A stretch of DNA of 64,000 bases from Bacteroidaceae bacterium (GCA_016286165.1 JAEESE010000006.1:78633-142632); one strand, 5' to 3'. Shown: positions 19,558 through 33,938, counted from the stretch's first letter. Notes: a model not told the origin generated them from the letters alone. Numbers and translations: made by a program.

Positions 19558-19603
19558 AGTGTTTTAAACCACTGGTTATTAACTAATTAAAAAATCAAAA
19601 ATC

Positions 19604-20080
19604 ATGAAGAAAATTCTATTGGTAATGCTGGTACTCGCCGGCTTCTGTGTGAAAGCAAACGCTCAGTTCTTCGTTTCTGGAACTGCAGGTTTTCAGTATC
19701 GCGACGAAGTGTTCAGCATGAAGCTGCTGCCTGGTGTAGGCTATGAAATCTCCGACCGCTGGGCTATTGGAGCTGGTCTCGGCCTCTCCGTGTACGATGA
19801 GAATACCAGAGGTCTTGCGAATCCTTATGTCCGTTTCAATTGCTGGAACAACGATCAGGTGTTCCTGGACGTGAAGGCCACTTCTGAACTCACTTTCGGC
19901 AAACATTACACCACTGCATTTGTGGGCCTCAAGCCTTCATTGCGCTATGCTGTAAACAATCATCTGCAGTTGTCGGCTGACTTCGGAGCCTTCGGTGTAG
20001 ACATCAACGACGGCGATGCTTCACCTGCTATCGGTCTTACACTTTCCGGCATCGACCTCACCGTTATCTACCGCTTCTGA
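19604..20080 (+). CDS. Small outer-membrane beta-barrel protein (OMP_b-brl-like)
   Basis: 158 aa with a signal peptide ending ...KANAQ. It has an alternating hydrophobic pattern and a C-terminal aromatic residue (...VIYRF). Confidence 0.65.
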   Translation: MKKILLVMLVLAGFCVKANAQFFVSGTAGFQYRDEVFSMKLLPGVGYEISDRWAIGAGLGLSVYDENTRGLANPYVRFNCWNNDQVFLDVKATSELTFGKHYTTAFVGLKPSLRYAVNNHLQLSADFGAFGVDINDGDASPAIGLTLSGIDLTVIYRF

Positions 20081-20108
20081 TTCATTCATTTAATTCATTG
20101 ATAGCTGT

Positions 20109-23018: not shown

Positions 23019-23030
23019 CAGACCCACCCC

Positions 23031-23069
23031 TCACCCTCCCTGTGAGGGAGGGGGTGGTCACCATCAAGA
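23031..23069 (+). repeat. GC-rich palindromic element / hairpin 13 nt downstream of the symporter stop codon
   Basis: gacccacccctcaccctccctgtgagggagggggtggtc is self-complementary. It is an inverted copy of the element at 23161-23197. Confidence 0.85.
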
Positions 23070-23129
23070 AACGCAATCCCAACTAATAATCCTTCATTAG
23101 TCATCAAGAATTATTCATATAGAATCACA

Positions 23130-24386
23130 ATGCAAGAAAAACAATCTTCAAAAGTAATTACTCCCCTCCATCACAGGGAGGGGCAGGGGGGTGGGTCTTT
23201 TAAAGAGTTAGCCCAGCTCTACAAATCAGAGTTGCTCGATCGCGTAGTCCCCTTCTGGCTCAACAAGTCCCAGGACACCGAGTTCGGTGGCTATTTCACT
23301 TGCCTCGACCGCGACGGCTCGGTCTATGATACCGACAAATTCATCTGGCTGCAAGGCCGTGAGGTTTGGATGTTCTCCAAACTCTACAACACCGTTGAGC
23401 CACGTCAGGAGTGGCTTGATGCCGCCATCCAAGGTGCCGAGTTCCTGAAGAAGTACGGCCACGACGGCAACCTCAACTGGTACTTCGCCCTCGACCGCGA
23501 AGGACATCCCCTCGTGGAGCCCTACAACATTTTCTCCTATACCTTTGCCGTCATCGCCTTCGGTCAGCTCTCCATCGCCCTCGCTACTGCTGGACAGAAG
23601 GAAAGAAGTGAGGAGTATGCCTCTATAGCCAAACGCACCTTCGACATTGTCCTCTCCAAGACCGACAACCCGAAAGGCCGCTGGTCTAAGGCCTCACCAG
23701 GCGCACGCGCCATGAAGACCTTCGACCTTCCCATGATTCTCTGCAATGTAGCTCTCGAGATAGAATCGCTCCTCGAGCCCGCCTTCCTGCAGAAAGCCAT
23801 CGACGATTGCCTCCACGAAGTCATGGATGTCTTCTATCGTCCTGAACTTGGCCTCATCGTCGAAGCCTTGGGCAAGGACGGCAACCTCGTTGACAGCTTC
23901 GACGGTCGCAAACTCAATCCCGGTCACGCCATCGAAGCTATGTGGTTTGTCATGGACCTCGGCAAGCGCCTCAATCGTCCCGAGCTTATCAAGCAAGCCG
24001 TTGACATCTGCCTGCAGGAAGTAGAATACGGTTGGGACAAAGAGTACGACGGCGTCTTCTACTTCATGGATCGCTTGGGCAAGCCCCGTCACGAACTCGA
24101 GTTCGACCAGAAACTCTGGTGGGTACACCTCGAAACGCTTATCTCCCTCATCAAGGGCTACCAGCTCACGGGCGACGAGCGTTGTCTCCGTTGGTTCGAG
24201 CGCGTTCACGACTACACCTGGAGCCATTTCCGCGACCCCGACTACCCCGAGTGGTATGGCTACCTCAACCGTCAAGGCGAAGTCCTCCTCCCCCTCAAGG
24301 GCGGCAAATGGAAAGGCTGCTTCCACGTCCCCCGCGGCCTCCTCAACGTATGGAAGATCCTCGAAGATCTCGCTCAAAGAGGATAG
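23130..24386 (+). CDS. N-acylglucosamine 2-epimerase (AGE/RENBP family)
   Basis: 418 aa with (alpha/alpha)6-type motifs VVPFWLNKSQDTEFGGYFTCLDRDG, PGHAIEAMWF, WWVHLETL and KGCFHVPRGL. Codons 12-23 are encoded by a GC-rich palindromic element. Confidence 0.85.
   Translation: MQEKQSSKVITPLHHREGQGGGSFKELAQLYKSELLDRVVPFWLNKSQDTEFGGYFTCLDRDGSVYDTDKFIWLQGREVWMFSKLYNTVEPRQEWLDAAIQGAEFLKKYGHDGNLNWYFALDREGHPLVEPYNIFSYTFAVIAFGQLSIALATAGQKERSEEYASIAKRTFDIVLSKTDNPKGRWSKASPGARAMKTFDLPMILCNVALEIESLLEPAFLQKAIDDCLHEVMDVFYRPELGLIVEALGKDGNLVDSFDGRKLNPGHAIEAMWFVMDLGKRLNRPELIKQAVDICLQEVEYGWDKEYDGVFYFMDRLGKPRHELEFDQKLWWVHLETLISLIKGYQLTGDERCLRWFERVHDYTWSHFRDPDYPEWYGYLNRQGEVLLPLKGGKWKGCFHVPRGLLNVWKILEDLAQRG
23161..23197 (-). 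repeat. GC-rich palindromic element inside the 5' end of the epimerase ORF (encodes PLHHREGQGGG)
   Basis: The reverse complement gacccacccccctgcccctccctgtgatggaggggag aligns with 23031-23069. Confidence 0.85.
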
Positions 24387-24416
24387 GTTAACGAAAACGC
24401 ATAATTCCCCATAGTT

Positions 24417-24872
24417 ATGAAACTCGCTGAAGCTTTAAGCATCCGCAAGGATCTGCAAAAACGTATCCAACAGATAGGGAAACGTTTGGAAGATAACGTG
24501 AAGATACAGGAGGGCGACGAACCAGCCGAGAACCCGAAGGAACTGATGAAGGAATTGGACGAATGCCTGAAACAATTGGAAAACCTGATTTGGCGTATTA
24601 ACCTGACAAACGTTCAGACCGTGAATGAGGCAGGTAAGACCGTCACGCAACTGATGGCAGAGAAAGATGTACTTTCGTTACGCTTGTCGACTTTACGCGG
24701 CACTTTCGACAGGGCTTCTTCGCAACACGATCGTTATTCCCGTTCTGAAATAAAGATGATTACGGTGGTAGATGTCAAGCAACTGAGCAAGCAGATTGAC
24801 GAATACTCAGCTGCGCTACGCAAGCTTGATATGGAAATTCAGACGTTGAATTTCCAGACCGAACTCGTCTGA
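24417..24872 (+). CDS. DIP1984-family (septicolysin-like) coiled-coil protein
   Basis: MKLAEALSIRKDLQKRIQQ...ENPKELMKELDECLKQLENLIWRINLTN...RYSRSEIKMITVVDVKQL...LNFQTELV matches my memory of the DIP1984 family consensus. Confidence 0.6.
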   Translation: MKLAEALSIRKDLQKRIQQIGKRLEDNVKIQEGDEPAENPKELMKELDECLKQLENLIWRINLTNVQTVNEAGKTVTQLMAEKDVLSLRLSTLRGTFDRASSQHDRYSRSEIKMITVVDVKQLSKQIDEYSAALRKLDMEIQTLNFQTELV

Positions 24873-25114
24873 TTTCTATTGGAGACATTCACATTCATAG
24901 GGCGAACTGAAAAACAATTGGTCTCTGATCAATGCCCGTTCGGCCGGGAGCAGGCCTCCTTCTCATTGGAGAACTCACGGAGCAAGCTTAGCACGGCTGC
25001 AATCGCATGCATTGTTCATTTAGCACATTGCACTACCGTCAGTTGACTATGATTGTCGAATGTCTCCTTCCTTTGTTGTCCTTTTATAAATTGTTGTTGG
25101 CGATATAGAAGTTT

Positions 25115-25147
25115 TTCATTGATGAACCCTTGTGTTATTGGCACAAG
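25115..25147. promoter_or_regulatory. Two small palindromes (candidate operators) upstream of the WYL gene promoter
   Basis: TTCAT-TG-ATGAA (25115-25126) and CTTGTG-ttattgg-CACAAG (25129-25147), about 30-60 nt upstream of the -7 box at 25174. Confidence 0.3.
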
Positions 25148-25173
25148 CAAGATTGTTCACCTTTTCCTATTAT

Positions 25174-25181
25174 TATATTTG
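25174..25181 (+). promoter_or_regulatory. -7 box TATATTTG for the WYL-nuclease operon
   Basis: Exact TAnnTTTG match 34 nt upstream of the ATG at 25215. Confidence 0.55.
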
Positions 25182-25214
25182 CCGTAGTCATTTCCCTGCT
25201 TTTGTATTTTTACG

Positions 25215-26126
25215 ATGATTAGCAAAACTTATTATCGATATATCTGGCTGCTGAACTTGTTGCTTGATAGCGACCCTCTCACATTTGATGAGATCTGTAT
25301 GATGTGGAAAATGAATCCGGCGTTCGATGGTCCTTTACCCATCCGTACGTTCCACGAGCATCGGAAGGGCATCAAAGAGATGTTTGGCGTGGACATCGAA
25401 TGCGACCGTTCGAAGGGTAATGTCTATTACGTCAAGAATCCGGAGGTCTTGGGGAAGATGAAACTGGAGAAGTGGTTGTTGCGTAATTATAGCATTCCAC
25501 AGGACTTTGTGACCTTCAACGCTATGAAGGACCGTATCCTGCTGGAGGAGATACCGCTGGGGCAGGCTTTCTTGGATCATATCATCGAAGCGATGAAGTC
25601 GAACGTGGAACTGCGGATAGAATACCAGCGATATGAATACGGGCAGGACACTCATCGACAAACGATTCACATGCAACCATACGCCCTGAAGGTCTATAAC
25701 CGTCGTTGGTATCTGTTGGGCTATCTGAAGGAACAAGATGCCTTGCGCATCATCTCGTTAGACCGCATTCTAAGCTTGCAAGTGCTAAAGACCTTCTTTG
25801 AACTGCCTTCAAACTTCAATGCAAGGAAATACTTCGCTGATGTGGTCGGCATCTTCGTGAACGAAGATCTTCCTGTGACCAAAGTGAAGATTCGCGCCTA
25901 CGGTACTCAGGCAGAATACCTTCGCTCTACTCCGCTCCATAAAAGCCAATCCGAAGGTCGCTCCAAATATCGTGAGTTTGCAGAATTCACCTATAGACTG
26001 TGCATAACACCAGAGTTGGTCACTCAGTTGCTAGCAATGGGGGACAAGGTAGAGGTGCTGGAGCCGGAGGAGTTGAGAGAAGAGATGAAAGAAGAATTAA
26101 TTAAATGTTTAACAAATTATAAATAG
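25215..26126 (+). CDS. WYL-domain transcriptional regulator (wHTH-WYL-WCX, BrxR/CapW-like architecture)
   Basis: 303 aa. It has an N-terminal wHTH-like region (YRYIWLLNLLLDSDPLTFDEI), the WYL signature VYNRRWYLLGY, and a C-terminal extension ending ...VEVLEPEELREEMKEEL. Confidence 0.8.
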   Translation: MISKTYYRYIWLLNLLLDSDPLTFDEICMMWKMNPAFDGPLPIRTFHEHRKGIKEMFGVDIECDRSKGNVYYVKNPEVLGKMKLEKWLLRNYSIPQDFVTFNAMKDRILLEEIPLGQAFLDHIIEAMKSNVELRIEYQRYEYGQDTHRQTIHMQPYALKVYNRRWYLLGYLKEQDALRIISLDRILSLQVLKTFFELPSNFNARKYFADVVGIFVNEDLPVTKVKIRAYGTQAEYLRSTPLHKSQSEGRSKYREFAEFTYRLCITPELVTQLLAMGDKVEVLEPEELREEMKEELIKCLTNYK

Positions 26127-26130
26127 TGTT

Positions 26131-26889
26131 ATGCAAATATCAAATAAAAATGGTAAAATAATTACTTGCCTCTCAACATGGAAAGATGCTTTTATTGAAG
26201 TTGACAATCCAAAGCATTGGAAACCAGGTAGGAGCGCTCATTCTTTAGCTCTTCATTTTACACGCCCATCAATAAATGGTTCTAAAGGAATAGATGTTTT
26301 ATCGGAATATCTTGGATATCTGGGATTTAAAAATGTTTTATTCGATTATGCAGAAATAGAGCATGAGAGCCGTTTTGATACCTTCCGTGGAAATGGACGT
26401 ATTCAAGATTTAATGATTTGGGCAAAAAGCGGAAATCGCCCTTTAGCTATATGTATAGAAGCCAAGGTTGATGAAACATTTGATAAGAATGTACCAGATG
26501 CGTATAAAGAAAGAATGATTTATTCTTCCAAGAGACCTAAGAGCAAAACCCTTGATAGATTAAACTATATTTGTAAGCACTATTATAAAGTTGAACCCAA
26601 TAGTAGTGAACTGAATGATATTCGATATCAACTTCTTTACTATCTAGCAGGCTCTATCACTGAGGCCAAAAAAATTGATGGCGTTGCATTTATGCCAGTC
26701 TTTGTTTACCATACAGATTCATACAACGATCAAAATGGAGATAATAACAAAAAAGACTATGAGACATTTATCAAATCACTTAATTTTTCTTCTATAAGGG
26801 TTAATGACACAATCCAAATGTATAAGAATAAAATTGACGGCGTTGATGTTTATAGTGCATATATCGAAATAGAAAAAAATGATTATTAA
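26131..26889 (+). CDS. PD-(D/E)xK nuclease-fold protein (possibly DUF6946-like)
   Basis: It starts 4 nt after the WYL gene stop. The candidate catalytic pattern is EHESRFD ... IQDLMIW ... ICIEAKVDE (E / D / ExK). The N-terminal WKDAF...HWKPGRSAHSLALHF resembles my recollection of DUF6946. This is unverified. Confidence 0.5.
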   Translation: MQISNKNGKIITCLSTWKDAFIEVDNPKHWKPGRSAHSLALHFTRPSINGSKGIDVLSEYLGYLGFKNVLFDYAEIEHESRFDTFRGNGRIQDLMIWAKSGNRPLAICIEAKVDETFDKNVPDAYKERMIYSSKRPKSKTLDRLNYICKHYYKVEPNSSELNDIRYQLLYYLAGSITEAKKIDGVAFMPVFVYHTDSYNDQNGDNNKKDYETFIKSLNFSSIRVNDTIQMYKNKIDGVDVYSAYIEIEKNDY

Positions 26890-26970
26890 TAATTTAAAAT
26901 AAGAGATACCTTTGTAAAATCTATTTTATCTTCATTTTTAGAATAAATATATAGAATACATCTCCTTTCT

Positions 26971-27011
26971 GCGGCGTTTTTGCATAACAAACAGCAAAAA
27001 CGTCGTTTTTT
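26971..27011 (+). terminator. Intrinsic terminator of the WYL-nuclease operon (first copy of a duplicated cassette)
   Basis: gcggcgtttttgc-ataacaaaca-gcaaaaacgtcg followed by tttttt. The 12-bp stem contains one G-U pair, which is valid only on the plus-strand RNA. Confidence 0.8.
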
Positions 27012-27085
27012 GTGACTTTTCATTCGTATATATATATTTATAGGGGCTGGTATGAAAAGGTGTGCCCCATGATGTTTCACTAAAA

Positions 27086-27093
27086 TATATTTG
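27086..27093 (+). promoter_or_regulatory. -7 box TATATTTG upstream of the 101-aa acidic membrane protein gene
   Basis: Exact TAnnTTTG match 45 nt upstream of the ATG at 27138. Confidence 0.5.
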
Positions 27094-27137
27094 TATATGG
27101 CATTACATATTATTTTATTCGCGACAAAGAAGGTCGC

Positions 27138-27443
27138 ATGGAAAAGATTCTGGACGATAAGGAGTATGATAGTTATCAAATGAGAAAGGGATGCTTTCAG
27201 TTCCTGTTAGCTGCTGCTCTTATAGGCTTGGCGGTTTATGGTAGCACCATGCAAGAGCCTGAAGACTCCTCAGATGCACAGACGGAGACGCCCACAATAG
27301 AGACTGAAGAAACCATTGAAATGAAAGAGGAGGAAGCGTCATCCGAGGAAGAGGACTTAGAAGATGTAAAAACAGAAACCGAAGACACCTCTTCTGTCAT
27401 TGACGAAGATGAATTGGTACAGCGGTTCAAGGAGAATCAGTAA
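27138..27443 (+). CDS. Small membrane-anchored protein with an extremely acidic tail
   Basis: 101 aa with one TM helix (CFQFLLAAALIGLAVYG). The 62-residue tail is about 40% D/E (EPEDSSDAQTETPTIETEETIEMKEEEASSEEEDLEDVKTETED...). Confidence 0.6.
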   Translation: MEKILDDKEYDSYQMRKGCFQFLLAAALIGLAVYGSTMQEPEDSSDAQTETPTIETEETIEMKEEEASSEEEDLEDVKTETEDTSSVIDEDELVQRFKENQ

Positions 27444-27507
27444 GAATAAAAGAATAGATTTATAAACACTTAGCAGTTCGTCCGACACGTAGATAGGGCT
27501 ATGTCAC

Positions 27508-27921
27508 ATGAAAATAACTGAGAAATACGTAAACGAGTCGCATCTTGAAGAGGTTTATCAACTCTTGCATAAAGGTGAAAAGTTGATTGATCTTGACTTG
27601 GAAAACGTGAAGAGTGTGCTTGTAGGAAAAGAGGGCATTCTTTACGAGGCCTATAAAGACGGCGGTGCAGAGAATGGCGCCTTTATGGAAGAATTCTTTG
27701 ATACGGTGAAAAAGATGGAAATGGTTCAAAACTGCACAGGAATACTATTCAACATAACCATGCCGGATGATGATCAATTGATGATGGAGGATATGGACAT
27801 TATCAATTGCTTCCTCAAATTATTTGAAGAAAAGAATATGATGATTCGTTGGGGGTTAAGGGTTGATGAGCAGGGAAGCCAGACATCTATATTAATGATC
27901 TGCACTAAAGATAAACAGTAA
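27508..27921 (+). CDS. Stand-alone FtsZ C-terminal-domain-like protein
   Basis: 137 aa. By eye it aligns along its length with E. coli FtsZ residues about 205-316. The matched pairs are LIDLDLENVKSVL vs LINVDFADVRTVM, CTGILFNITMPDDDQLMMEDMD vs ARGVLVNITAGFDLRLDEFE, and TSILMICTK vs LRVTVVATG. There is no N-terminal GTP-binding domain. Confidence 0.6.
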   Translation: MKITEKYVNESHLEEVYQLLHKGEKLIDLDLENVKSVLVGKEGILYEAYKDGGAENGAFMEEFFDTVKKMEMVQNCTGILFNITMPDDDQLMMEDMDIINCFLKLFEEKNMMIRWGLRVDEQGSQTSILMICTKDKQ

Positions 27922-27982
27922 AAGTGCGGAGCCAGTATTGGGCCTTCTTACACCCAAATTCCACAAATTACATATCCTTTCT

Positions 27983-28022
27983 GCGGTGTTTTTGCACATC
28001 AAACAGCAAAAACGCCGTTTTT
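27983..28022 (+). terminator. Intrinsic terminator (second copy of the duplicated cassette)
   Basis: gcggtgtttttgc-acatcaaaca-gcaaaaacgccg followed by ttttt. The wobble pair is U-G here, versus G-U at the same stem position in copy 1. Confidence 0.8.
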
Positions 28023-28083
28023 GTATCTATTCTTTCGTATATATATAATAGAGGGCTATTCCTCTTAACGAGTAAAAGTAGTA

Positions 28084-28434
28084 ATGATGCAAGAACAGAA
28101 GACACTAACCGTGACAGACATCTTGGGCAACGCAGTCAACACACCGTTGCTCAGTAATGAGGAAGAAATCCGTATGTCAAAGAAGGTAAGAGAGGGTGAT
28201 GAGGCGGCTATCAAGGAGTTCAAACAATGCAATGCGCGCTTCGTGGCGGCAGTCGCCAAGCAGTACACCGACCGAGGCATGACCATCGACGAGCTGATGG
28301 AGGCGGGCTACGACGGACTCATAGAAGCAGCATGTAAGTACGACGAGAAAGACGGATTCAAGTTTATCAGCTATGCCGTTTGGTGGATTCGACAAAACAT
28401 TCTACAAGTCCTATTTGCACCAGCTTCGAACTAA
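28084..28434 (+). CDS. Sigma-70 family protein truncated to regions 1.2-2.4 (sigma-2 domain only)
   Basis: TPLLSNEEEIRMSKKVREGDEAAIKEFKQCNARFVAAVAKQYTDRGMTIDELMEAGYDGLIEAACKYDEKDGFKFISYAVWWIRQNI aligns colinearly with primary-sigma regions 1.2-2.4. The ORF stops 10 codons after WWIRQ. There are no regions 3 or 4. Confidence 0.75.
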   Translation: MMQEQKTLTVTDILGNAVNTPLLSNEEEIRMSKKVREGDEAAIKEFKQCNARFVAAVAKQYTDRGMTIDELMEAGYDGLIEAACKYDEKDGFKFISYAVWWIRQNILQVLFAPASN

Positions 28435-28474
28435 AAAGAATCAAATAGATAACCAATCTCAATACTTACATCTT

Positions 28475-28936
28475 ATGATTACAACAAGACTTACAACCAA
28501 GAAATCCGAATTCCGTGAGATGCTCAGCAAGCTCAACGCCCAGCAAAAGCGTCTCTTCAGTCCCGATGAGGTGGATTACCTCTCGAACTGCAATAGCTTT
28601 GAGTATCTGGAGTTCAAGCAGGAAGATGAGGATGACGATGAATTCCTCAAGCAGTTTTCCACCTGGCTGCACGAGTGCCCCAAGCATCAGGGGCACGTGG
28701 ATTACTATGTCCTGTTCTATCTCTGTATGGGCGAGACGCTGACCCGAGATCAGTTCGAGTACATGGAGCGGAACGTCGCCGAATGCTTCGACACTAGCCA
28801 CGGCTGGATCTACGAGATCAACAACCGTATTCGCTTCAAGATGCGTGTCCGTCTGATATGCAGTTACAAGAACAAGATGCGTCGTCTGACAAGAAAGGAT
28901 TGGAGAGAAGGAACTGAGATTGACGAAAACAAATGA
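28475..28936 (+). CDS. Hypothetical protein with a weak sigma region-4-like HTH (possible second half of a split sigma factor)
   Basis: The ATG at 28475 was chosen because the longer 28373 start overlaps the sigma-2 ORF. YYVLFYLCMGETLTRDQ...VAECFDTSHGWIYEINNRIRFKMR loosely resembles region 4.1-4.2 (xxVLxLRFG...xxEVGxxFGVTRERIRQIExKALRKLR). It also has an acidic stretch, QEDEDDDEF. Confidence 0.4.
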   Translation: MITTRLTTKKSEFREMLSKLNAQQKRLFSPDEVDYLSNCNSFEYLEFKQEDEDDDEFLKQFSTWLHECPKHQGHVDYYVLFYLCMGETLTRDQFEYMERNVAECFDTSHGWIYEINNRIRFKMRVRLICSYKNKMRRLTRKDWREGTEIDENK

Positions 28937-28955
28937 TTGGATTAACCGTAACGTC

Positions 28956-29849
28956 ATGAAAGAGACCACAACGAAGATATTGAAGAGACTTGTCGCCGAA
29001 GGCATGAAAATGCGCTATGGCGACAACCCTGACAGAAAAGTGAAACTGAGAATACTATGGGAGCTGAAGCATATCATAGATGCCGGCTTCGAGGGCCACT
29101 ATATCATGGTCTTTAGGTTATTCAGGCATTATGCTGAGACCGTAAAGATGGGCTATAGGGGGCGCGGCGCGATGTGTTCCTCTATTGTTTGCTACTGCTT
29201 GGGCCTCACAGAGGTTGATCCTCTGCGCTTTGGCCTTCACTCGGCTCGTTTCGTAAACGATGAGCCGCCCAAGTTTCAATTTGACTTCGAGGCATCACAC
29301 TACGATGAGTTCATGCAAGGGGCACAGCATCTGCTTGTAGCTAATGCAAAGGACTACGACATGGAGGTCGTGCGCTTGTCTCTGGATGTCACACCGATGG
29401 CATATCTGAGCAGGAAACGTGAAGCGCCAGAGCCTGAGGACCTCGATGATGAGATAGCGCGTGATGCCCTTATTCGACCTGACACGATGGACTTGTATGA
29501 TGCTTACATGCGTCGCAAAAGTGACGGGCTCTGGACGAGACATGGTGGACGTCTCGATGAGATACTGGCTCCTACCTGCGGATTTTTGGTATATCAAGAG
29601 CAAATGCTGGACATCCTTCGCCAGTTCTTTCACGTGAGCGGAATCAAGGCCAACCAAATCCGCCTGAGCATTCAACGAGGAGACACAGAGCAAGTTGAAA
29701 CTTACAAGCAGGAACTCTTTGCTCACCTCGAAGACCTCACAGAGAAAAAGGCCGAATGGCTCTGGCAACTCCTCACCAGCAATCCTCATGCCTTCCTGAA
29801 AGCTCATGCGGTTAGTCGTGTGCTGGCAAAGTGTCATTTTGAATATTAA
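28956..29849 (+). CDS. Miniature DnaE (Pol III alpha)-like protein lacking the catalytic aspartates
   Basis: Segment 1, ELKHIIDAGFEGHYIMVF...GYRGRGAMCSSIVCYCLGLTEVDPLRFGLHSARFVNDEPPKFQFDF, aligns with DnaE ELQVINQMGFPGYFLIV...[48 protein letters not shown]. Segment 2, ALIRPDT...YMRRKSDG...LAPTCGFLVYQEQMLDILRQ...ANQIRLSIQRGD...FLKAHAVSRV, aligns with the fingers region (ALFRPGP...FIDRKHG...LEPTYGIILYQEQVMQIAQ...ADMLRRAMGKKK...FNKSHSAAYA). The ATG at 28956 is preferred over the TTG at 28920. Confidence 0.65.
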   Translation: MKETTTKILKRLVAEGMKMRYGDNPDRKVKLRILWELKHIIDAGFEGHYIMVFRLFRHYAETVKMGYRGRGAMCSSIVCYCLGLTEVDPLRFGLHSARFVNDEPPKFQFDFEASHYDEFMQGAQHLLVANAKDYDMEVVRLSLDVTPMAYLSRKREAPEPEDLDDEIARDALIRPDTMDLYDAYMRRKSDGLWTRHGGRLDEILAPTCGFLVYQEQMLDILRQFFHVSGIKANQIRLSIQRGDTEQVETYKQELFAHLEDLTEKKAEWLWQLLTSNPHAFLKAHAVSRVLAKCHFEY

Positions 29850-29884
29850 TCGACAAAATAATAGTGAGAATAACAGAAAAAGTG

Positions 29885-29892
29885 TATTTTTG
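29885..29892 (+). promoter_or_regulatory. -7 box TATTTTTG for the PD-(D/E)xK / MBL operon
   Basis: Exact TAnnTTTG match 21 nt upstream of the ATG at 29913. Confidence 0.5.
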
Positions 29893-29912
29893 CAGAGTAA
29901 TAAATCGTTAAA

Positions 29913-30806
29913 ATGAATTTTATGGATAAAAAGTATTTCAAATTAAACAAGGATGCAGCATTATTTGAGTTTTTGTCTCATAAGCCTATGTGGTGGAAAT
30001 TGCTTTTAGAGGACAAGGACTTATATGTGAATATTAGAAAAGAAAACAGGATAAATGTTTATTATCGTGGAGCTTCTATAATGAGCCTTAGTTATAATGA
30101 TGGCAAGGTAACAGCTGAAATTCATAACTATTACTTGGGATTTGAGAAGGATACATGTGCTGCTTTAGGAATCAAATACGGCAATCAAAAGAAAGCCCCC
30201 GAAGAAATCGTTTGCAGACTTCCGATGATAAAGAAACGAGTAGAGGCGAACAAGAAGTACATCGCTTGTTTAGAGGAGGAAGGAATGGTAGGGAACATCT
30301 ATTCAAGTGAAAAGTATGTTCAATCACAACTCTATATGAATGATAACCATTACTTCGATACTGAATTTGCACTCAGGTTGGATGATGGCACAGATATCAG
30401 AATAGATTTGGTAAGAATGTCTGATCATGGCGAAATCTGCTTCGTGGAACTGAAATTGATTGATGACCAGCGACTTTATCCATCAAGTGGAAGAGATGCT
30501 GAGATCATTACCCAGATGGAAAATTATGAAAGATTCCTTTTAGAAGCTAATAAGTTGAAAGGAAAAACTGGTAAACCAATTCTTATCGAATATTATACAA
30601 CAGTCTTGGAAATTATGGAGAAGATAGGTATTCACCGTACATCCATTAAACCTGTAATGGTACATGACAAAGTCTTTCTCTTTATAAAACAAACCTACAC
30701 AAAGAAATCTTCAGGAAGAGAAAAACGCCTGAACACAATTAAAAAAGTATGTGATGGTTTATACTCCAATATTGATGATGTTTTAACGGATTATAATAGC
30801 CTATGA
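29913..30806 (+). CDS. PD-(D/E)xK nuclease-fold protein
   Basis: 297 aa. The candidate core is SEKYVQSQL ... IRIDLVRMSDHGEICFVELKLID (E / D / ExK spacing typical of restriction-endonuclease-like folds). Its stop overlaps the next start (ATGA at 30803-30806). Confidence 0.5.
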   Translation: MNFMDKKYFKLNKDAALFEFLSHKPMWWKLLLEDKDLYVNIRKENRINVYYRGASIMSLSYNDGKVTAEIHNYYLGFEKDTCAALGIKYGNQKKAPEEIVCRLPMIKKRVEANKKYIACLEEEGMVGNIYSSEKYVQSQLYMNDNHYFDTEFALRLDDGTDIRIDLVRMSDHGEICFVELKLIDDQRLYPSSGRDAEIITQMENYERFLLEANKLKGKTGKPILIEYYTTVLEIMEKIGIHRTSIKPVMVHDKVFLFIKQTYTKKSSGREKRLNTIKKVCDGLYSNIDDVLTDYNSL

Positions 30807-32026
30807 CCATTACCATTCATCGCGGCCTTGACCAGATAGGCGGCTGCATAACTGAGATAAGTACAGCAACGTCCCGCATCTTTGTGGATATGGGGCAGAA
30901 TCTACCAGGCAATGGTGAGAAAACCACACCGGCGCAGGACAAGGAGATGGTGGAAGGGCTGTTCAAGAACAACCCCAAAGCACATGAAGCCGTCATCTAT
31001 ACTCATGCACATGAAGATCATATAGGACTCTTTGATTATGTGCCGAAGGGCGTTCCTCAGATGATAGGAGAAGGTGCCAAGGATGTCTTGCTGGAAAAAT
31101 ACAGGTTGCTGTGCAAGGCTGATGAGGCAGCAGGAAATGACCCTGCTACAAATCTTCGGAAACGAGCAAAGCTAAAACGTTTTAAGACGTGGCCTCGAAG
31201 CCGTGATCCCAAACCATTCAGCGTTGGCGATATACAGATTACGCCCTTCTTCAACTGCCATTCCATCTATGACTCCTATATGTTTCTGATTGAGGCCGAC
31301 AGTAAGCGCGTCTGGCATATGGGCGACTATCGTCAGCACGGCTGGATGGGTGGCAAGTTGCTGCAACTGCTGAGATGGAGGGCCACGAATATCGACACCT
31401 TAATTACGGAAGGTACAATGCTTGGGCGTGAAGAGGAATGTATCACAGAAAAAGAGGTGTCTGAAAAGATGGCCCACGTGATGCGTGCCTTTAAATATGT
31501 CTTCGTACTGACCTCTGCCACAGACATTGAGCGTCTTGCCAGCATCAATTTGGCAGCAAGGCAAGTGAACAGGCCGCTCTATGTCAGCTCAGGGCTTTTG
31601 AATGCAGCAATGAAAATCTTTACTCATCGTGAAGCGAAGACACCTGGCGACCTGTTCTTTTTCAAGCCTCGTTACTATGGTGGGTTTAAGCATTTGGAAC
31701 CAATGAGAAAACGTGGTTTTGTGATGATTACCAACGTTGGAAAGTTTGTGGACATGGATAATCTTCGCCGTGAATTGCCAGAGAGTGAAACCCTACTCAT
31801 CTATTCCTCATGGGACGGCTACTACAATGACCCAGAGCAAGTGCGCCTCAATCCGATGTATGCCATGTTTCGCGGAGCGTTTCACAACGTAGTAGATATC
31901 CATACTTCTGGCCATGCCGACCGAAAGACCATCAAGCAGGTCATCGAGACCATCCATCCCAAGGAGGTCATCTGTATTCACAAAGAAAAAGGACAGTCGT
32001 TGGAGTCATTAGGAATACATTATTGA
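30803..32026 (+). CDS. Metallo-beta-lactamase fold nuclease of the beta-CASP / RNase J-like type
   Basis: Motifs HAHEDHIG (HxHxDH), FNCHS, HMGDY, the TEGT beta-CASP motif A-like element, and C-terminal HTSGHADRKTIKQVIETIHPKEVICIHKE (motif C). Confidence 0.75.
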   Translation: MTITIHRGLDQIGGCITEISTATSRIFVDMGQNLPGNGEKTTPAQDKEMVEGLFKNNPKAHEAVIYTHAHEDHIGLFDYVPKGVPQMIGEGAKDVLLEKYRLLCKADEAAGNDPATNLRKRAKLKRFKTWPRSRDPKPFSVGDIQITPFFNCHSIYDSYMFLIEADSKRVWHMGDYRQHGWMGGKLLQLLRWRATNIDTLITEGTMLGREEECITEKEVSEKMAHVMRAFKYVFVLTSATDIERLASINLAARQVNRPLYVSSGLLNAAMKIFTHREAKTPGDLFFFKPRYYGGFKHLEPMRKRGFVMITNVGKFVDMDNLRRELPESETLLIYSSWDGYYNDPEQVRLNPMYAMFRGAFHNVVDIHTSGHADRKTIKQVIETIHPKEVICIHKEKGQSLESLGIHY

Positions 32027-32155
32027 CTAGGGAACTCGATTCATGCAATATTTGAATTAAATATTTCTTTTTTAACCTGAAGAATAGGCGCGTGCCTCAT
32101 AGGGGCAAGGTTAAACTTGGCTGCCGAAAGAAAATGTATGGGCTGAGTGCTTTCC

Positions 32156-32869
32156 CTATTTTACATAGTCTGGGTCGAAGTGGCTATGGTATTCTAAGCA
32201 CAATTGTCGGTAGTATTCTCGCGTGGTGTCGCTTGTCGTGTCAGAACGGATGATCTCATAATAGTAATGTGATAGTCCTGGCTCTAGGCCGGTCTCTGTA
32301 TGGATGACGTTGTATAGCGAATCGCCCAGCACGGGTCGGCAGACGTCCTCGGGATTTGCTGCATAGAACATGCGGTAACTCTTCACCTGTACCTCTGTCT
32401 GCAAATACTCGAATGCCATGTTAAAGAGGTCGCCCCAATAGCCACGGTTGCTGGTCTGGTGCTTGTAACTGCCGAAGATACCGCGCTCAGTGGCTGTTGA
32501 TTTCACGTCGTCGATGACAATACTTATCTTATCATATTCGCAGACAACGGTGGTGCGTGCCAGATCCTTCAGCTCGAATGGCCTGGATTTATCGGAACGG
32601 CATTTGCGCTCGGCGCTCTCACGGGTCTTGTAGTCAAGAGGCGTGGTTTTACCGTTGTGGCGTGCAGCCACCTCTTCGGCAAGTGCCTGTGTCGGTGGGC
32701 CATATATTTGAGCCCACCTAATGGCCTGATCCAGTTCGGCCTGAAATTCTTTTTCTAATTGTTGCTCCGCATCGATAGGGTCGTCTTCGCGGTCGCAGGA
32801 GACGAAGAAGAAGCTGAAGGTGAGGACGGCGATCAGCATCCACAATTGTCGTAAAGATTTCATTATCAT
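32156..32869 (-). CDS. Lipoprotein with a RelA/SpoT-like (small alarmone synthetase-type) nucleotidyltransferase domain
   Basis: The start was moved to the ATG at 32869, giving MIMKSLRQLWMLIAVLTFSFFFVSC (lipobox). Synthetase-type motifs are present in order: YKTRESAERKCR, LKDLARTTVVCE, RGYWGDLF, TEVQVKSYRMFYA. Confidence 0.6.
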   Translation of the reverse strand: MIMKSLRQLWMLIAVLTFSFFFVSCDREDDPIDAEQQLEKEFQAELDQAIRWAQIYGPPTQALAEEVAARHNGKTTPLDYKTRESAERKCRSDKSRPFELKDLARTTVVCEYDKISIVIDDVKSTATERGIFGSYKHQTSNRGYWGDLFNMAFEYLQTEVQVKSYRMFYAANPEDVCRPVLGDSLYNVIHTETGLEPGLSHYYYEIIRSDTTSDTTREYYRQLCLEYHSHFDPDYVK

Positions 32870-32942
32870 GGTAAGTTTGATGTTTCTGTTTGTAAAGGTA
32901 GTGAAAAATACGTGAAAGGCATGCCCTTTAGTGGATTTTTTA

Positions 32943-32950
32943 TATCTTTG
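32943..32950 (+). promoter_or_regulatory. -7 box TATCTTTG upstream of the oxidoreductase gene
   Basis: Exact TAnnTTTG match 29 nt upstream of the ATG at 32979. Confidence 0.55.
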
Positions 32951-32978
32951 CGCCCAGAAACGATAATATCCACAACTA

Positions 32979-33938
32979 ATGAATATCGCAATCATTGGCA
33001 CAGGAAAGATTGTTCACGAGGCGCTGCCGGTGATCGTTGGGACCGAAGGCATCGTGGTGCGCAGCATCTGGTGCCGTGAGCATTCGTTGGCGAAGGCGGA
33101 GGCGTTGGCGGCGCAGTTCGGCATTCCGCAGGTTGCGACGGATTATGCAGCGGTATTGGCTGACCCACAGGTCGATACCGTATATGTTGCTCTCGTCAAC
33201 AGCGTTCATTACGCCTATGCCTTGCAGGCGTTGCAAGCAGGAAAAAACGTTATCCTTGAGAAGCCGGCGTGCATGAGTCATCGCGAGCTTGCCCGTCTGG
33301 CCGAGGAAGCGCGAGGCCGTGGGCTGATGCTCTTCGAGGCCGTCACGCTGTTGCACTTGCCCGCCTTCCATCTCCTTCAAACAGAGCTGCTGCCGCAGTT
33401 GGGCGCCATTCGCCATGTCGAGTGCAACTACAGCCAACGCTCCAGCCGTTATGATGCTTATTTGCGTGGTGAAGTGCTGCCCGCCTTCGACCCGTCGGTT
33501 GGTGGCGGTGCGCTCATGGACATCAATATCTACAATCTCCATTTCGTCATTGCCCTCTTCGGCAAGCCCGATTCAGCTCGTTACTATTGCCGTCGCGGCT
33601 TCAATGGCGTAGATTTGTCGGGGACGGTGGTGATGAACGCGCCGCTCAGCCTCTGTACTGGCGCTAAGGATACCGATGCGCCGAGCTTTGGACTGCTGCA
33701 GGGCGACAACGGATGGTTGCGCATCGAGGGACCTGTCAGCACGATGGCGGCCATGACCATTTGTCTTCGTGGTCAGCAGCCGCGACAAATTCCCCTTGCG
33801 CCCGTCAGCCATCGCCTGGCCCCCGAGTTCGCGGCCTTCGCTGATATCCTCCGTCGGCAGGACTTCGCCACGATGAACAGCCTGCTCGACCATTCCCTCG
33901 CCGTCATGAAGGTGGTGGATGAGATCGTGTCAGATTAA
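32979..33938 (+). CDS. Gfo/Idh/MocA family oxidoreductase
   Basis: N-terminal Rossmann motif MNIAIIGTGKIVHEA plus EKPACMSHRELARL, which is typical of the family. Confidence 0.85.
   Translation: MNIAIIGTGKIVHEALPVIVGTEGIVVRSIWCREHSLAKAEALAAQFGIPQVATDYAAVLADPQVDTVYVALVNSVHYAYALQALQAGKNVILEKPACMSHRELARLAEEARGRGLMLFEAVTLLHLPAFHLLQTELLPQLGAIRHVECNYSQRSSRYDAYLRGEVLPAFDPSVGGGALMDINIYNLHFVIALFGKPDSARYYCRRGFNGVDLSGTVVMNAPLSLCTGAKDTDAPSFGLLQGDNGWLRIEGPVSTMAAMTICLRGQQPRQIPLAPVSHRLAPEFAAFADILRRQDFATMNSLLDHSLAVMKVVDEIVSD

Follow-up and report, generated by a model that had tools for sequence, protein, structure and literature searches.

A WYL-regulator, nuclease and machinery-fragment gene block of a Bacteroidaceae bacterium as one copy of a conserved, horizontally exchanged cassette

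What does the AT-rich gene block between the sialic-acid operon and the pectin cluster of this Bacteroidaceae genome represent, one acquired unit or several small systems, and in which process would it serve? A preliminary description of the window, a contiguous stretch of 64 kb, had proposed a horizontally acquired, defence-type island. The proposed location agrees with the Pfam assignments of the flanks, and the A/T-rich shift seen at about 24.9-32.0 kb is borne out by windowed GC: 7168-bp windows taken across the 64 kb average 0.525 (sd 0.037), and the lowest of them all, 25000-32167, stands at 0.422. The interval as initially delimited has a GC of 0.424 against 0.535 in the remaining sequence, and one-kb bins range over 0.325-0.477 within the island versus 0.537 +/- 0.045 outside. 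Codon usage deviates likewise, with GC3 of 0.24-0.67 in the island genes, below the 0.69-0.74 of the flanking genes. The island is internally mosaic, the sigma, DnaE and MBL genes (GC 0.48-0.50) lying well above the DUF6946 gene (0.32) and the 297-aa PD-(D/E)xK gene (0.35).

The junctions were located with the genomes of relatives. Homology stops at 24373-24380, resumes at 25215, precisely with the start codon of the WYL gene, and stops at 32032; flank synteny picks up again at 32991. This puts the shared island core at 25215-32032, and the whole variable block, as judged from these alignments, is 24374-32990. A short direct repeat (24898-24908 and 32027-32035), put forward earlier as a candidate boundary signal, lies away from these junctions and is absent from the reported repeat families, and was discarded. 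The island occupies a variable slot that has the sialic-acid operon on one side and a Gfo/Idh/MocA gene on the other. Horizontal acquisition is supported by several comparisons. One relative, syntenic on both sides, carries an alanine dehydrogenase in place of the island. With the epimerase gene as anchor, the presence of the island varies among close relatives whose epimerases are 86-92% identical, many being without it. For the same genome pair dS is 0.05-0.38 within the island versus ~1.0 in the flanks, and nucleotide identity to one relative reaches 90-95% in the island and only 75-85% in the flanks. Swaps of cassettes relative to locus L066 are gene-exact, the nuclease-slot segment and the 297-aa gene being those that differ. 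Taken together, these comparisons indicate an accessory, horizontally exchanged block in a rumen Prevotella-type bacterium.

The two outer genes had been suspected to be accessory as well, and both fall within the variable block. The DIP1984/DUF6847 gene represents an additional insertion that separates the epimerase gene from the island, a singleton cluster found in this lineage only among the loci compared; it is missing in L014, L020, L021 and L024, where WYL starts 56-59 nt past the epimerase gene. The lipoprotein, which begins with a signal peptide and a lipobox (..FVSC), had been called RelA/SpoT-like, and its residues 58-206 indeed match the toxin domain of Tas1, of the RelA/SpoT family (6OX6 residues 263-410, E 2.5e-16 in the PDB search). 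Pfam gave nothing for this protein and the gene is absent in L065; it lies within the variable block yet outside the cassette.

Conservation in other genomes backs nine plus-strand genes (Table 1). Of the ten tightly packed plus-strand ORFs described initially, the orientation and nine genes thus stand, but a tenth is without support, and the packing is tight only inside transcription units, between which gaps of 248 nt and 162 nt contain a repeated regulatory element. As candidate genes, ORF 27924-28157 was rejected for its overlap with a conserved non-coding element, and support was absent for ORF 24879-25046. The reported lack of integrase, transposase and tRNA holds: Pfam, NCBIfam and PHROGs gave zero matches to integrase or transposase families in the window, and a tRNA search of the whole 64 kb found none.

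Table 1. Genes and cis elements of the variable block, with the evidence for each assignment
Feature	Position	Strand	Evidence and composition
DIP1984/DUF6847-family gene	24417..24872	+	Pfam DUF6847 3e-52, NCBIfam DIP1984_fam 7e-55; GC 0.46
WYL + WCX regulator, PafBC/DriD-like	25215..26126	+	Pfam WYL 8e-13, WCX 2e-10
DUF6946 protein, PD-(D/E)xK clan	26131..26889	+	Pfam DUF6946 3e-24; GC 0.32, GC3 0.24
Cis element copy 1	26957..27036	+	13-bp hairpin 26971-27006, T-run, then TCGTATATATA.. box; direct repeat families D1, D3
101-aa protein, one transmembrane helix, highly acidic tail	27138..27443	+	homologues in loci
137-aa stand-alone FtsZ C-terminal-domain paralogue	27508..27921	+	profile search, hhalign
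Cis element copy 2	27969..28047	+	hairpin 27983-28018
116-aa sigma-70 fragment, regions 1.2 + 2 only	28084..28434	+	Pfam Sigma70_r2 2e-11, r1_2 6e-6
153-aa conserved protein	28475..28936	+	14 loci, 43-95% identity, 37 invariant columns
297-aa mini-DnaE	28956..29849	+	Pfam DNA_pol3_alpha 6e-20, finger 4e-14
297-aa uncharacterised protein, PD-(D/E)xK-type motif IDLV...FVELK	29913..30806	+	motif read; GC 0.35
407-aa MBL-fold beta-CASP nuclease (RNase J / CPSF / Artemis class)	30803..32026	+	Pfam Lactamase_B_2, RMMBL
235-aa lipoprotein, Tas1-like (RelA/SpoT-family) toxin domain	32156..32863	-	PDB Tas1 6OX6

The left edge of the shared island is formed by the WYL regulator, the most conserved of the island genes (dN/dS 0.07-0.17), which in 24 of 30 loci precedes the mini-DnaE gene by 1-3 kb. 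Pfam detects no N-terminal HTH in the protein. Its earlier designation as BrxR/CapW-like has to be revised, as the best PDB matches are PafBC (6SJ9, 1e-10) and DriD-type WYL proteins, with no BrxR or CapW entry among them. PafBC and DriD are ssDNA-activated regulators (PMC7617703, PMC13004042); DriD switches on DidA, which inhibits division, and PafBC-like proteins are reportedly common in Bacteroidetes (PMC7617703). Immediately 3' and in the same operon, the DUF6946 gene, of a family placed in clan CL0236 (PMC10584680), fills a swappable nuclease slot, which is occupied by REase-ARP nucleases in 12 loci, by DUF6946 in 4 and by other D..ExK proteins elsewhere; in L066 the segment 26100-26962, with the DUF6946 gene, is swapped for other sequence.

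The central genes encode small proteins, several of them related to single domains of core machinery. The acidic transmembrane protein, for which Pfam gave nothing, has same-position homologues in L020, L021, L031, L056 and L062 and a related family, c29, found elsewhere (dN/dS of the gene, 0.22-0.56). The FtsZ paralogue keeps the T7-loop region without the GTPase domain, and its relationship to FtsZ is visible by profile only: the family profile matches residues 206-318 of true FtsZ (Tubulin + FtsZ_C) at E 9e-6 among 1.8e9 proteins, and hhalign aligns residues 24-134 with FtsZ 207-319 (93.9% probability, E 1.5e-7). This family comprises 90 clusters at 50% identity, most of 128-140 aa, and the gene has a dN/dS of 0.24-0.33. 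A distant family member sits in a CHAT/dynamin/AAA locus. The sigma fragment stops just past region 2.4, regions 3 and 4 being missing, with NCBIfam RpoS/RpoD models covering ~100 of its residues; it clusters with Bacteroidota-type island paralogues that are full-length (286-297 aa) or made of regions 2 and 4 (~207 aa), and its dN/dS is 0.15-0.36. The 153-aa gene (dN/dS 0.14-0.30), whose product has a conserved start, MITT.., at 28475, is invariably located immediately 5' of the mini-DnaE gene. Its profile finds no relative in the PDB, and a weak Pfam PHP match (E 0.0046) hints faintly at a PHP-domain remnant, if any. The fragment genes of the window are all under purifying selection (dN/dS about 0.15-0.56).

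The mini-DnaE consists of the first palm half and part of the fingers of a C-family polymerase, its residues 8-124 and 159-282 corresponding to 314-433 and 644-790 of M. tuberculosis DnaE1, and is devoid of the thumb, the second palm half and the PHP, beta-binding and OB domains. An AF2 model (pLDDT 76) has structural matches to C-family polymerases only; in the Foldseek alignments its identity to solved DnaE structures is 15-17%. The degenerate active site has PKFQFDI in place of the PDIDIDF of DnaE and keeps one of the three catalytic Asp, and the protein is predicted to be catalytically dead. Homologues number 490, with lengths of 266-320 aa in 117 of the best 120 listed; they stay short down to 48-55% identity, with ~60 invariant columns, Gln108 being invariant in the family, and the gene has a dN/dS of 0.15-0.22. 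The invariant motifs RGA..SS, IR..IQRG and FLKAHA map to the incoming-nucleotide contacts of DnaE, a placement compatible with a sensor of a ligand or DNA end as much as with a bait.

At the right end, the 297-aa PD-(D/E)xK-type protein found zero matches in Pfam, PADLOC, NCBIfam and the PDB, and none of the 75 clusters of its family has a Pfam domain or an informative name. Its gene (dN/dS 0.06-0.08) adjoins the MBL gene in the window, L024, L033 and L129-L131, is separated from it by one 252-aa ORF in L132/L133, is fused to it in L027 and is missing from L066. We consider it from this arrangement a putative partner of the MBL protein, behaving as cassette-like cargo. The beta-CASP protein carries HAHEDH, HTSGH and IHKE motifs and matches the NCBIfam RNase J family (5e-17) and, in the PDB, RNase J and Integrator-11. 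Its gene, present in 14 of 30 loci, marks the right edge of the shared island, homology to L066 ceasing just past it, at 32032.

An island-specific element, composed of a hairpin, a U-run and TATAAT, heads each fragment unit. Copy 1 is upstream of the acidic-transmembrane/FtsZ-C unit (RNA fold -17.6 kcal/mol, z -4.05) and copy 2 lies 104 nt 5' of the sigma-fragment gene (-18.4 kcal/mol, z -4.9). In the hairpin 99% of cells are paired, and one-sided changes are of the G.U type. The 17-mer TCTGCGGYGTTTTTGCA occurs 28 times across 24 loci, always on the gene strand and in 25 of the 28 occurrences 100-144 nt upstream of the gene that opens a fragment unit; in 1.1 Mb of control loci it is confined to the five that carry the island. 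Alternatively, the hairpin may be nothing more than the WYL-operon terminator.

The scan of species-representative genomes revealed 28 loci, spanning at least 4 different chromosomal sites, that share the order WYL, nuclease, sigma fragment, 152-aa/DnaE-fragment gene and mini-DnaE. Loci reached from the PD-(D/E)xK gene alone (42-48% identity) again hold WYL, PD-(D/E)xK, MBL and Metallophos genes, the PD-(D/E)xK and beta-CASP pair being often followed by a calcineurin-like phosphoesterase gene; L129-L131 encode a dead DnaE-like protein too, and L132/L133 have a WG-repeat protein at the DnaE-like position plus a GyrA-like fragment. Related loci contain DnaB C-domain, GyrA and DnaE fragments (Pfam), and the fusions observed are sigma+mini-DnaE, mini-DnaE+FtsZ-C-like, mini-DnaE+WG repeats and MBL+PD-(D/E)xK. 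Some genomes have two copies (L022, L025). The distribution so far is restricted to Bacteroidota, mostly rumen Prevotellaceae/Bacteroidaceae; the cassette was not found on viral contigs or plasmids, which leaves it with no tie to a specific invader, and no member of its families was found in IMG/VR. We found no paper describing it. On these comparisons, 25215-32032 is one copy of a conserved, unnamed, horizontally exchanged multi-gene cassette with a fixed layout. The recurrence of the gene set, the single cis element and the fusions make the several small systems suggested at the outset unlikely. As to the label of defence, it is kept as an interpretation: PADLOC recognised no catalogued defence system, its matches being to the WYL domain and, via the shared sigma-70 region 2, to MzaA.

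At least 4 nuclease/phosphoesterase families, hypervariable nuclease slots and the CHAT/dynamin/AAA locus of the distant FtsZ-C family member give the cassette its conflict flavour, and its probable role is in conflicts with phages. We propose, with about even confidence, a WYL-switched conflict system in which the fragments are baits or plugs and the nucleases the effectors of an inducible anti-phage or anti-mobile-element response. The WYL protein would respond to infection or damage by sensing a nucleic-acid signal, much as its relatives sense ssDNA, and turn on the fragment units via the shared cis element. Deprived of catalytic parts, the fragments would act through binding, either baiting those invader proteins whose targets are the replisome, RNA polymerase and divisome or plugging these machines as dominant negatives, and the nucleases would subsequently destroy nucleic acid, giving an inducible response against phages or mobile elements. 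How faithfully the fragments mimic host surfaces is uncertain because they are very diverged from their parents. Pfam finding no HTH counts against a WYL switch, and the fact that PafBC and DriD govern DNA-damage regulons counts against a role in immunity.

Among known systems, PafBC and DriD share the WYL + WCX domains of the island regulator and are its best solved relatives, and the DriD/DidA pair offers a parallel for a regulator upstream of small, potentially division- or replication-inhibiting proteins (PMC7617703). Here, however, the putative targets are domain-only FtsZ, sigma and DnaE paralogues and nucleases, the island is mobile, patchily distributed and AT-rich, and ssDNA sensing, DNA binding and activation are only presumed. 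BrxR/CapW of BREX, CBASS and other defence islands are likewise WYL-WCX regulators placed first in a variable, nuclease-rich accessory block, but PADLOC finds neither BREX, CBASS nor another catalogued system behind the island regulator, and neither protein is among its PDB matches. MzaA, of the candidate anti-phage system MZA, is a precedent for a sigma-70 region-2 protein in a defence context; its models match the sigma fragment over ~85 residues but have 683-726 positions against 116 aa, and the match reflects shared region 2 only. For the other island proteins PADLOC gave nothing beyond the WYL models and weak matches at E >= 0.002. In the ImuA-ImuB-DnaE2 mutasome, ImuB is a catalytically dead polymerase that acts as a binding scaffold (PMC6511836). 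The mini-DnaE may share with it the concept of an active-site-less polymerase paralogue, under selection, in an inducible cassette, although ImuB is Y-family and partners an active full-length DnaE2, whereas the mini-DnaE is a truncated C-family palm/finger piece; Pfam and NCBIfam found no ImuA, ImuB or active DnaE2 near the island. PARIS senses an anti-restriction protein, retron Ec48 guards RecBCD, and SulA and MciZ are FtsZ-capping inhibitors. As in our proposal, attack on central machines would be detected or blocked via proteins that present or occupy surfaces; the binding partners of the island fragments, in contrast, are hypothetical. We know of no system with stand-alone truncated FtsZ, sigma, DnaE, DnaB or GyrA paralogues.

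The same components could be read, though we think this unlikely, as a non-immune DNA-damage checkpoint/repair regulon under an ssDNA-sensing PafBC/DriD-like activator. Among the small inhibitors induced, the FtsZ C-domain would act as a cap that pauses division, sigma region 2 would do the same for transcription and the DnaE, DnaB and GyrA fragments for replication, while damaged DNA is processed by the beta-CASP, Mre11-like phosphoesterase and PD-(D/E)xK nucleases. The PafBC/DriD kinship of the regulator, the induction of DidA by DriD and the frequency of PafBC-like proteins in Bacteroidetes (PMC7617703) all favour this, as does the retention by the fragments of domains with parental contact surfaces, their catalytic parts being gone. 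A core stress regulon, however, would not be expected to be AT-rich, patchy among relatives with epimerases this similar, exchanged between lineages with swappable nuclease cassettes, or duplicated as in L022 and L025. Beta-CASP and Metallophos enzymes include DNA-repair nucleases, which also fits a checkpoint.

That independent small defence systems share a hotspot (e.g. WYL+DUF6946, PD-(D/E)xK+MBL and the fragment genes) is quite improbable. Defence hotspots do gather unrelated systems, the composition is mosaic, DUF6946 and the 297-aa gene are gained and lost independently, and the PD-(D/E)xK+MBL pair could be its own unit because it also exists as a fusion. Nevertheless, the combination repeats at distinct places on the chromosome, and also in distant relatives found via another gene, a single island-specific element precedes each fragment unit, and fusions link the sigma, DnaE and FtsZ-C modules. 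We hold it very improbable that the block is the replication/transcription module of an integrative element or satellite that has so far escaped recognition and would propagate itself, or commandeer a helper, by means of minimal sigma, DnaE, DnaB and FtsZ-like proteins. Horizontal exchange, the sigma and replication-type domains, the full-length rpoD-like paralogues of some loci and the 871-bp direct repeat that flanks the L028 module are in its favour, but integrase, relaxase, capsid and packaging genes and att repeats are absent in all loci examined, the DnaE-like protein is short of the thumb and 2/3 of the catalytic Asp, and no family member was found in IMG/VR. Barely plausible is an array of immunity proteins or target mimics against interbacterial toxins that hit FtsZ, RNA polymerase, gyrase and the replisome, along the lines of the orphan-immunity arrays of Bacteroidales: small genes are arrayed with an intergenic element that recurs, some of them encode mimics of common toxin targets and a Tas1-like toxin lipoprotein is next door, but no recombinase or recognisable immunity family was found (Pfam, PADLOC, NCBIfam, PHROGs), and tight linkage to a WYL regulator and several cytoplasmic nucleases would be unexpected. 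Finally, decaying pseudogenes of foreign dnaE, rpoD and ftsZ, as truncation, internal deletions, lost catalytic residues and the overlap of the ORFs as first listed (28373-28936 and 28920-29849) might suggest, are effectively refuted by a dN/dS of about 0.15-0.36 for the sigma, FtsZ-C, 153-aa and mini-DnaE genes, by hundreds of homologues equally short down to 48-55% identity with ~60 invariant columns, and by the conserved gene order and upstream cis element.

The block between the sialic-acid operon and the pectin cluster is confirmed as AT-rich, being the GC minimum of the window. The interval originally outlined (24873-32040) has a GC content of 0.424 against 0.535 for the remaining window, and the lowest-GC 7168-bp window in the 64 kb was located at 25000-32167 with a value of 0.422 (all such windows: average 0.525, sd 0.037). 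In a sliding analysis GC is ~0.56-0.60 in the flanks and drops to 0.29-0.50 from ~24.7 to 32.2 kb, and GC3 is 0.24-0.67 in the island genes versus 0.69-0.74 in the neighbouring sialic-acid and pectin genes. The identities proposed for the flanks agree with Pfam, which assigns DHDPS/NanA, an NANM-SSF fusion and a GlcNAc 2-epimerase to the left side and a Gfo/Idh/MocA gene followed by a GH28/GH88 protein to the right. The preliminary description had counted ten plus-strand ORFs, of which nine are backed by conservation in other genomes and the tenth has no support. Its statement that mobility genes and tRNAs are absent stands, since no tRNA lies within the 64-kb window and family searches match no island protein to integrase or transposase families.

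A metagenome scan anchored on the epimerase gene yielded 80 loci. The island follows the epimerase in only five of them (L051, L055/56, L062 and L066), and many relatives with an epimerase 86-92% identical do not carry it. In contig L065 synteny extends over both sides (window 11865-24373 and 32991-33911), and an alanine dehydrogenase gene with a GC content like that of the host (L065 11440-12546) replaces the 8.6-kb block between the epimerase and Gfo/Idh/MocA genes, which makes this position a replacement hotspot rather than a simple empty/occupied insertion site. Between the window and L021/L066, dS is 0.97-1.07 for the three sialic-acid genes and 0.05-0.38 for the island genes, with a nucleotide identity of 90-95% in the island and 75-85% in the flanks. 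Patchy presence, the synteny of L065 and discordant divergence are three independent lines demonstrating that the island was horizontally acquired, as had been supposed. The comparison with relatives advised for finding the empty site did map the junctions, although the slot in L065 turned out to be filled: homology stops at 24373-24380, resumes exactly at the ATG of the WYL gene (25215) and stops at 32032, and the synteny of the right flank restarts at 32991. No flanking att repeats coincide with the island junctions, and the short direct repeat once considered as a boundary signal lies at a different position from them.

Within these limits the block is itself composite. A DIP1984/DUF6847-family gene, together with ~340 bp of unique non-coding DNA, is an insertion confined to this lineage, and in relatives without it the WYL gene starts 56-59 nt past the epimerase gene. 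Two genes of the island behave as cassettes that are replaced with gene-exact limits, namely DUF6946 (26100-26962) and the gene for the 297-aa PD-(D/E)xK protein (29852-30800), which also show the lowest GC among the island genes (0.32 and 0.35, respectively). The lipoprotein gene on the right falls within the variable block, so that both it and the DIP1984 gene can be regarded as accessory, in accordance with the earlier suggestion. Tas1 is a T6SS (p)ppApp-synthetase toxin. The lipoprotein, which has a signal peptide and the lipobox FVSC, gives a match to the Tas1 domain (PDB 6OX6, E 2.5e-16), with no Pfam match and no obvious adjacent immunity gene.

Genes and repeated elements of the island and its variable surroundings (window positions)
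Feature	Position	Strand	Basis
DIP1984/DUF6847-family gene	24417-24872	+	
WYL + WCX protein	25215-26126	+	Pfam WYL 8e-13, WCX 2e-10
DUF6946 protein	26131-26889	+	Pfam; clan CL0236
~80-bp element, first copy	26957-27036		
Single-pass membrane protein, acidic tail	27138-27443	+	
FtsZ C-terminal-domain protein, 137 aa	27508-27921	+	profile search, hhalign; ~135-aa family
~80-bp element, second copy	27969-28047		
Sigma-70 regions 1.2 + 2 fragment	28084-28434	+	Sigma70_r2 2e-11, r1_2 6e-6
153-aa conserved protein	28475-28936	+	weak PHP signal at most
Mini-DnaE	28956-29849	+	Pfam/NCBIfam DnaE palm + finger
297-aa D..ELK-motif (PD-(D/E)xK) protein	29913-30806	+	75 clusters
Beta-CASP MBL nuclease	30803-32026	+	Pfam Lactamase_B_2 + RMMBL
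Lipoprotein	32156-32863	-	

The regulator at the head of the island had been compared to BrxR/CapW. Its best PDB relatives are PafBC (1e-10) and DriD-type WYL proteins (2e-4 to 9e-4), no BrxR or CapW entry being among them, and an N-terminal HTH could not be recognised, residues 1-116 matching no Pfam family even at E 5. DUF6946 has been placed in clan CL0236 (PMC10584680), the PD-(D/E)xK nuclease clan. None of the clusters of the 297-aa D..ELK family carries a Pfam domain or an informative name. The metallo-beta-lactamase (MBL) protein matches the RNase J family (NCBIfam, 5e-17), has RNase J and INTS11 as PDB relatives, and presents the HxHxDH motif as HAHEDH.

The central genes encode domain-only paralogues of essential machinery. 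The homology of the 137-aa protein to FtsZ was settled by an exhaustive profile search, in which the family profile matches true FtsZ at 206-318 (E 9e-6), and by hhalign to Bacteroidota FtsZ (93.9% probability, E 1.5e-7; residues 24-134 on 207-319). The aligned segment includes the INLDFNDVK T7-loop region, and the GTPase (tubulin) domain is absent, as the protein aligns to FtsZ 207-319 alone. With an approximate E. coli FtsZ sequence hhalign gave a probability of 0.2%, Pfam FtsZ_C matches 1 of 19 family members, no PDB relatives were found by sequence or profile search, and the AlphaFold2 model (pLDDT 48) was unusable. The family comprises 90 clusters at 50% identity. In the sigma fragment the motif FISYAVWWIRQ can be read and the ORF stops past region 2.4, region 4 being absent; relatives elsewhere retain region 4 at 207 aa or have the full length of 286-297 aa, and for sigma there are already signs of descent from host paralogues. 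For the 153-aa protein a PHP origin is only weakly indicated, by a Pfam E of 0.0046, and its profile found in the PDB a single, spurious designed-repeat match.

Mini-DnaE, a 297-aa protein, is related to C-family polymerases by PDB profile (1.6e-20) and by Foldseek (4e-9), and its predicted structure (pLDDT 76) matches C-family polymerases only. Residues 8-124 correspond to M. tuberculosis DnaE1 314-433 and residues 159-282 to 644-790. The gap between 433 and 644 of DnaE1 means that ~210 residues are missing, which we take to be the thumb and the second half of the palm with the third catalytic Asp of DnaE. The catalytic PDIDIDF reads PKFQFDI, in which the Gln is invariant, and the PHP, beta-binding and OB domains are lacking. 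There are 490 homologues, with lengths of 266-320 aa in 117 of the best 120 and identities of 55-92%, and ~60 columns of the alignment are invariant. The idea that the fragment genes are debris is contradicted by these uniform short lengths and by dN/dS values of 0.15-0.36 for the sigma fragment, FtsZ-C, 153-aa and mini-DnaE genes. In one source, family members are named 'DNA polymerase III alpha subunit' or 'cell division GTPase FtsZ'; annotators should drop those names for cassette genes, even if the mechanism proposed below is wrong.

The fragment genes are accompanied by an ~80-bp element present twice in the window. It is formed by a 13-bp hairpin and a T-run, with a TCGTAT..TATAAT box ~20 nt onward. 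The hairpins fold at -17.6 and -18.4 kcal/mol (z-scores -4 to -5) and were missed by a simple terminator scan because the loop is 10 nt. Across 17 sequences 99% of the hairpin cells are paired, versus 43-61% with the partner slid, and 6 of the 13 pairs show one-sided variation via G.U-compatible changes. A symmetric operator, which the paired arms might otherwise represent, is weakened as a model by the asymmetry of the arms, the 3' one accumulating G.U-compatible changes and the 5' one being invariant; on this pattern of substitutions we favour an element that would act as an RNA-level hairpin. No Rfam family was found in the island, and an attC/integron or rAID-1-type array was rejected since, despite the repeated element, neither the window nor 30 loci contain a recombinase.

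A 17-mer of the element, TCTGCGGYGTTTTTGCA, occurs in 28 copies in 24 cassette loci, on the coding strand every time, and 25 of these copies lie 100-144 nt ahead of the first fragment-unit gene. Among the epimerase-anchored loci (1.1 Mb) the 17-mer is confined to the five island carriers. This island-only census argues that the fragment units form a co-regulated set specific to the cassette, for which the WYL protein is the candidate regulator acting on the element. More diverged WYL loci (45-47% identity) have a different hairpin at the same position. The conserved box 3' of the hairpin (28037-28053, with equivalents in ~20 loci) always includes TATAAT, which we take to resemble a -10 of proteobacterial type, unlike the usual Bacteroidota TAnnTTTG, and which raises the idea that these promoters are read by the island-encoded sigma paralogues and not by the host primary sigma.

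A scan of one genome per species gave 28 loci. The genomes concerned belong without exception to Prevotellaceae, Bacteroidaceae or other Bacteroidales and come mostly from ruminant gut (goat, yak, sheep, reindeer); the named strain HUN156 contributes one locus. The common order is WYL, a variable PD-(D/E)xK nuclease, the sigma fragment, a 152-aa protein or another DnaE palm fragment, and mini-DnaE, followed by variable extras and often, after these, by a PD-(D/E)xK and MBL pair. The nuclease slot is occupied by REase-ARP in 12 loci and by DUF6946 in 4; what 'ARP' stands for in the Pfam name REase-ARP was not found in the literature. The same architecture is found at several places in the chromosome, among them one that follows the sialic operon and one that precedes the NQR operon. 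Pfam identified further fragments in related loci, namely a DnaB C-terminal domain (4e-47), GyrA/ParC positions 322-419 (5e-7) and a second DnaE palm fragment (1e-6), and found among 20 more small ORFs no machinery fragments beyond sigma, DnaE, DnaB, GyrA and FtsZ-C. Loci reached independently, from the 297-aa PD-(D/E)xK gene (42-48% identity), again contain WYL, PD-(D/E)xK, MBL and Metallophos genes; three of the compared loci (L129-L131) also encode a DnaE-like protein of 480 aa whose active site is dead, and two others (L132/L133) a WG-repeat protein at the DnaE-like position together with a GyrA-like fragment.

Natural fusions join sigma region 2 to mini-DnaE (protein P0112), MBL to PD-(D/E)xK (L027), and mini-DnaE to an FtsZ-C-like domain whose likeness is by motif only and undetected by Pfam. 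WG-containing beta-repeats (PF14903) are fused at the C-terminus of mini-DnaE in L035, L037-L039 and L046 (ORFs of 389-529 aa), and the stand-alone WG-repeat protein of L132 (6160-7203) fills the DnaE-like position in a distant cassette; this arrangement hints that WG-repeat and DnaE-like proteins may be interchangeable sensor modules. Searches of phage GenBank records (tblastn), IMG/VR and PLSDB returned no cassette members, only distant true DnaE and sigma genes. In one locus (L028) an 871-bp direct repeat, 95.6% identical between its copies (7185-8055 and 10851-11721), brackets a WYL, 152-aa and mini-DnaE module; each copy is a full-length Bacteroidota rpoD-like gene, and the repeat may trace module movement or the origin of the sigma fragments.

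Lacking catalytic parts, the fragments retain individual domains of their parents: region 2 of sigma, the C-domain of FtsZ with the T7-loop region and the RecA-like domain of DnaB, as well as part of the GyrA topoisomerase core and the nucleotide-pocket motifs of DnaE. To these regions belong the surfaces by which sigma meets the core enzyme and FtsZ polymerises, the body of the DnaB hexamer and the exit-gate region of GyrA. Since the fragments are dead but keep interface domains, we favour an inducible conflict system, for which we infer the following mechanism. By analogy with known WYL proteins, an ssDNA-sensing WYL regulator would switch the fragment units on through the cis element; the fragments would then work as binding proteins, baiting invader proteins or plugging host machines, and the role of effector would fall to the PD-(D/E)xK, beta-CASP and phosphoesterase proteins.

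Two papers describe PafBC and DriD as WYL-WCX regulators of SOS-independent DNA-damage responses, DriD binding ssDNA, activating transcription and inducing the division inhibitor DidA (PMC7617703; PMC13004042). A housekeeping DNA-damage checkpoint under a regulator of this type is the main rival explanation; however, the island is mobile and patchy and has swappable nuclease slots, for which reason immunity is favoured over it. Strict mimicry of the parent proteins is weakened by the strong divergence of the fragments from them, as judged from the alignments. Returning to the conflict system, we put forward, as a substantial possibility though one less likely than not, that it may represent a new class, in which dead stand-alone domain-only paralogues of DnaE, DnaB, GyrA, sigma-70 and FtsZ would be specificity modules under an ssDNA-sensing WYL protein and a dedicated cis element. 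Coupled to nucleases of the PD-(D/E)xK, beta-CASP and Mre11-like types, these modules would serve either as decoys that draw phage host-takeover proteins or as dominant-negative plugs.

The island had been regarded as possibly containing several small defence systems, and a PADLOC scan had been suggested for it. PADLOC-DB v2.0.0 shows no markers of any catalogued anti-phage system, the only well-scoring matches being generic WYL models and MzaA region-2, with 7 of 10 proteins unmatched at E <= 0.001. To our knowledge, DNA-damage and phage responses have been little studied in Bacteroidota, and it is possible that PafBC/DriD-type regulators play a role on their mobile islands. Accessory islands that are AT-rich and have a WYL regulator at their head are already known as a kind; the cargo of dead DnaE, sigma-2, FtsZ-C, DnaB-C and GyrA paralogues with WYL and nucleases is not, and a literature search covering few subscription journals found no paper on such WYL/nuclease-linked stand-alone paralogues. 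The nearest concepts are DriD/DidA for the regulator and inhibitor, BrxR/CapW-headed islands for the WYL gene at the island head, MzaA, a sigma-like defence component, for the sigma fragment, ImuB, a dead polymerase retained as a scaffold, for mini-DnaE (PMC6511836), and guard or decoy sensing for fragment baits.

Should the cassette serve in immunity or as a checkpoint, it would show that bacteria reuse parts of their essential machinery as binding modules under regulation, which would be either bait for phage proteins seizing the replisome, RNA polymerase and divisome or inducible brakes on these machines. Either model, if true, would add a new principle to prokaryotic immunity, akin to the integrated decoys of plant NLRs. 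The size and modularity of the family, with hundreds of mini-DnaE clusters and natural fusions indicating which parts cooperate, make these ideas open to direct testing, and the cassette gives the dark families DUF6946, REase-ARP, 297-aa PD-(D/E)xK and 153-aa a first functional context.

Relatives of the fragments were also observed in other settings. A 48%-identical member of the FtsZ-C family is found in a different conflict-type locus (L010-L013; e.g. L010 1-20414) with genes for a dynamin-like protein, a CHAT protease (1024 aa) and an AAA ATPase, and ~15 small ORFs including YbjN/TY-Chap-like proteins and duplicated modules. Metagenomes contain further FtsZ-C proteins that are chimeric or truncated (P0221, P0167, P0210, P0230), among them a truncated ABC-transporter ATPase joined to FtsZ_C (316 aa), FtsZ-C joined to guanylate kinase (327 aa) and FtsZ_C-only proteins, and domain-only FtsZ derivatives may therefore extend beyond this cassette. 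Finally, two small ORFs of L129 (4312-4716 and 7302-7832) have in common a C-terminal domain, ..ILSGNxRKGM..FIIxSDL.., which has no Pfam match and, from its motifs, looks as though it may be a degenerate P-loop NTPase remnant, another machinery fragment.
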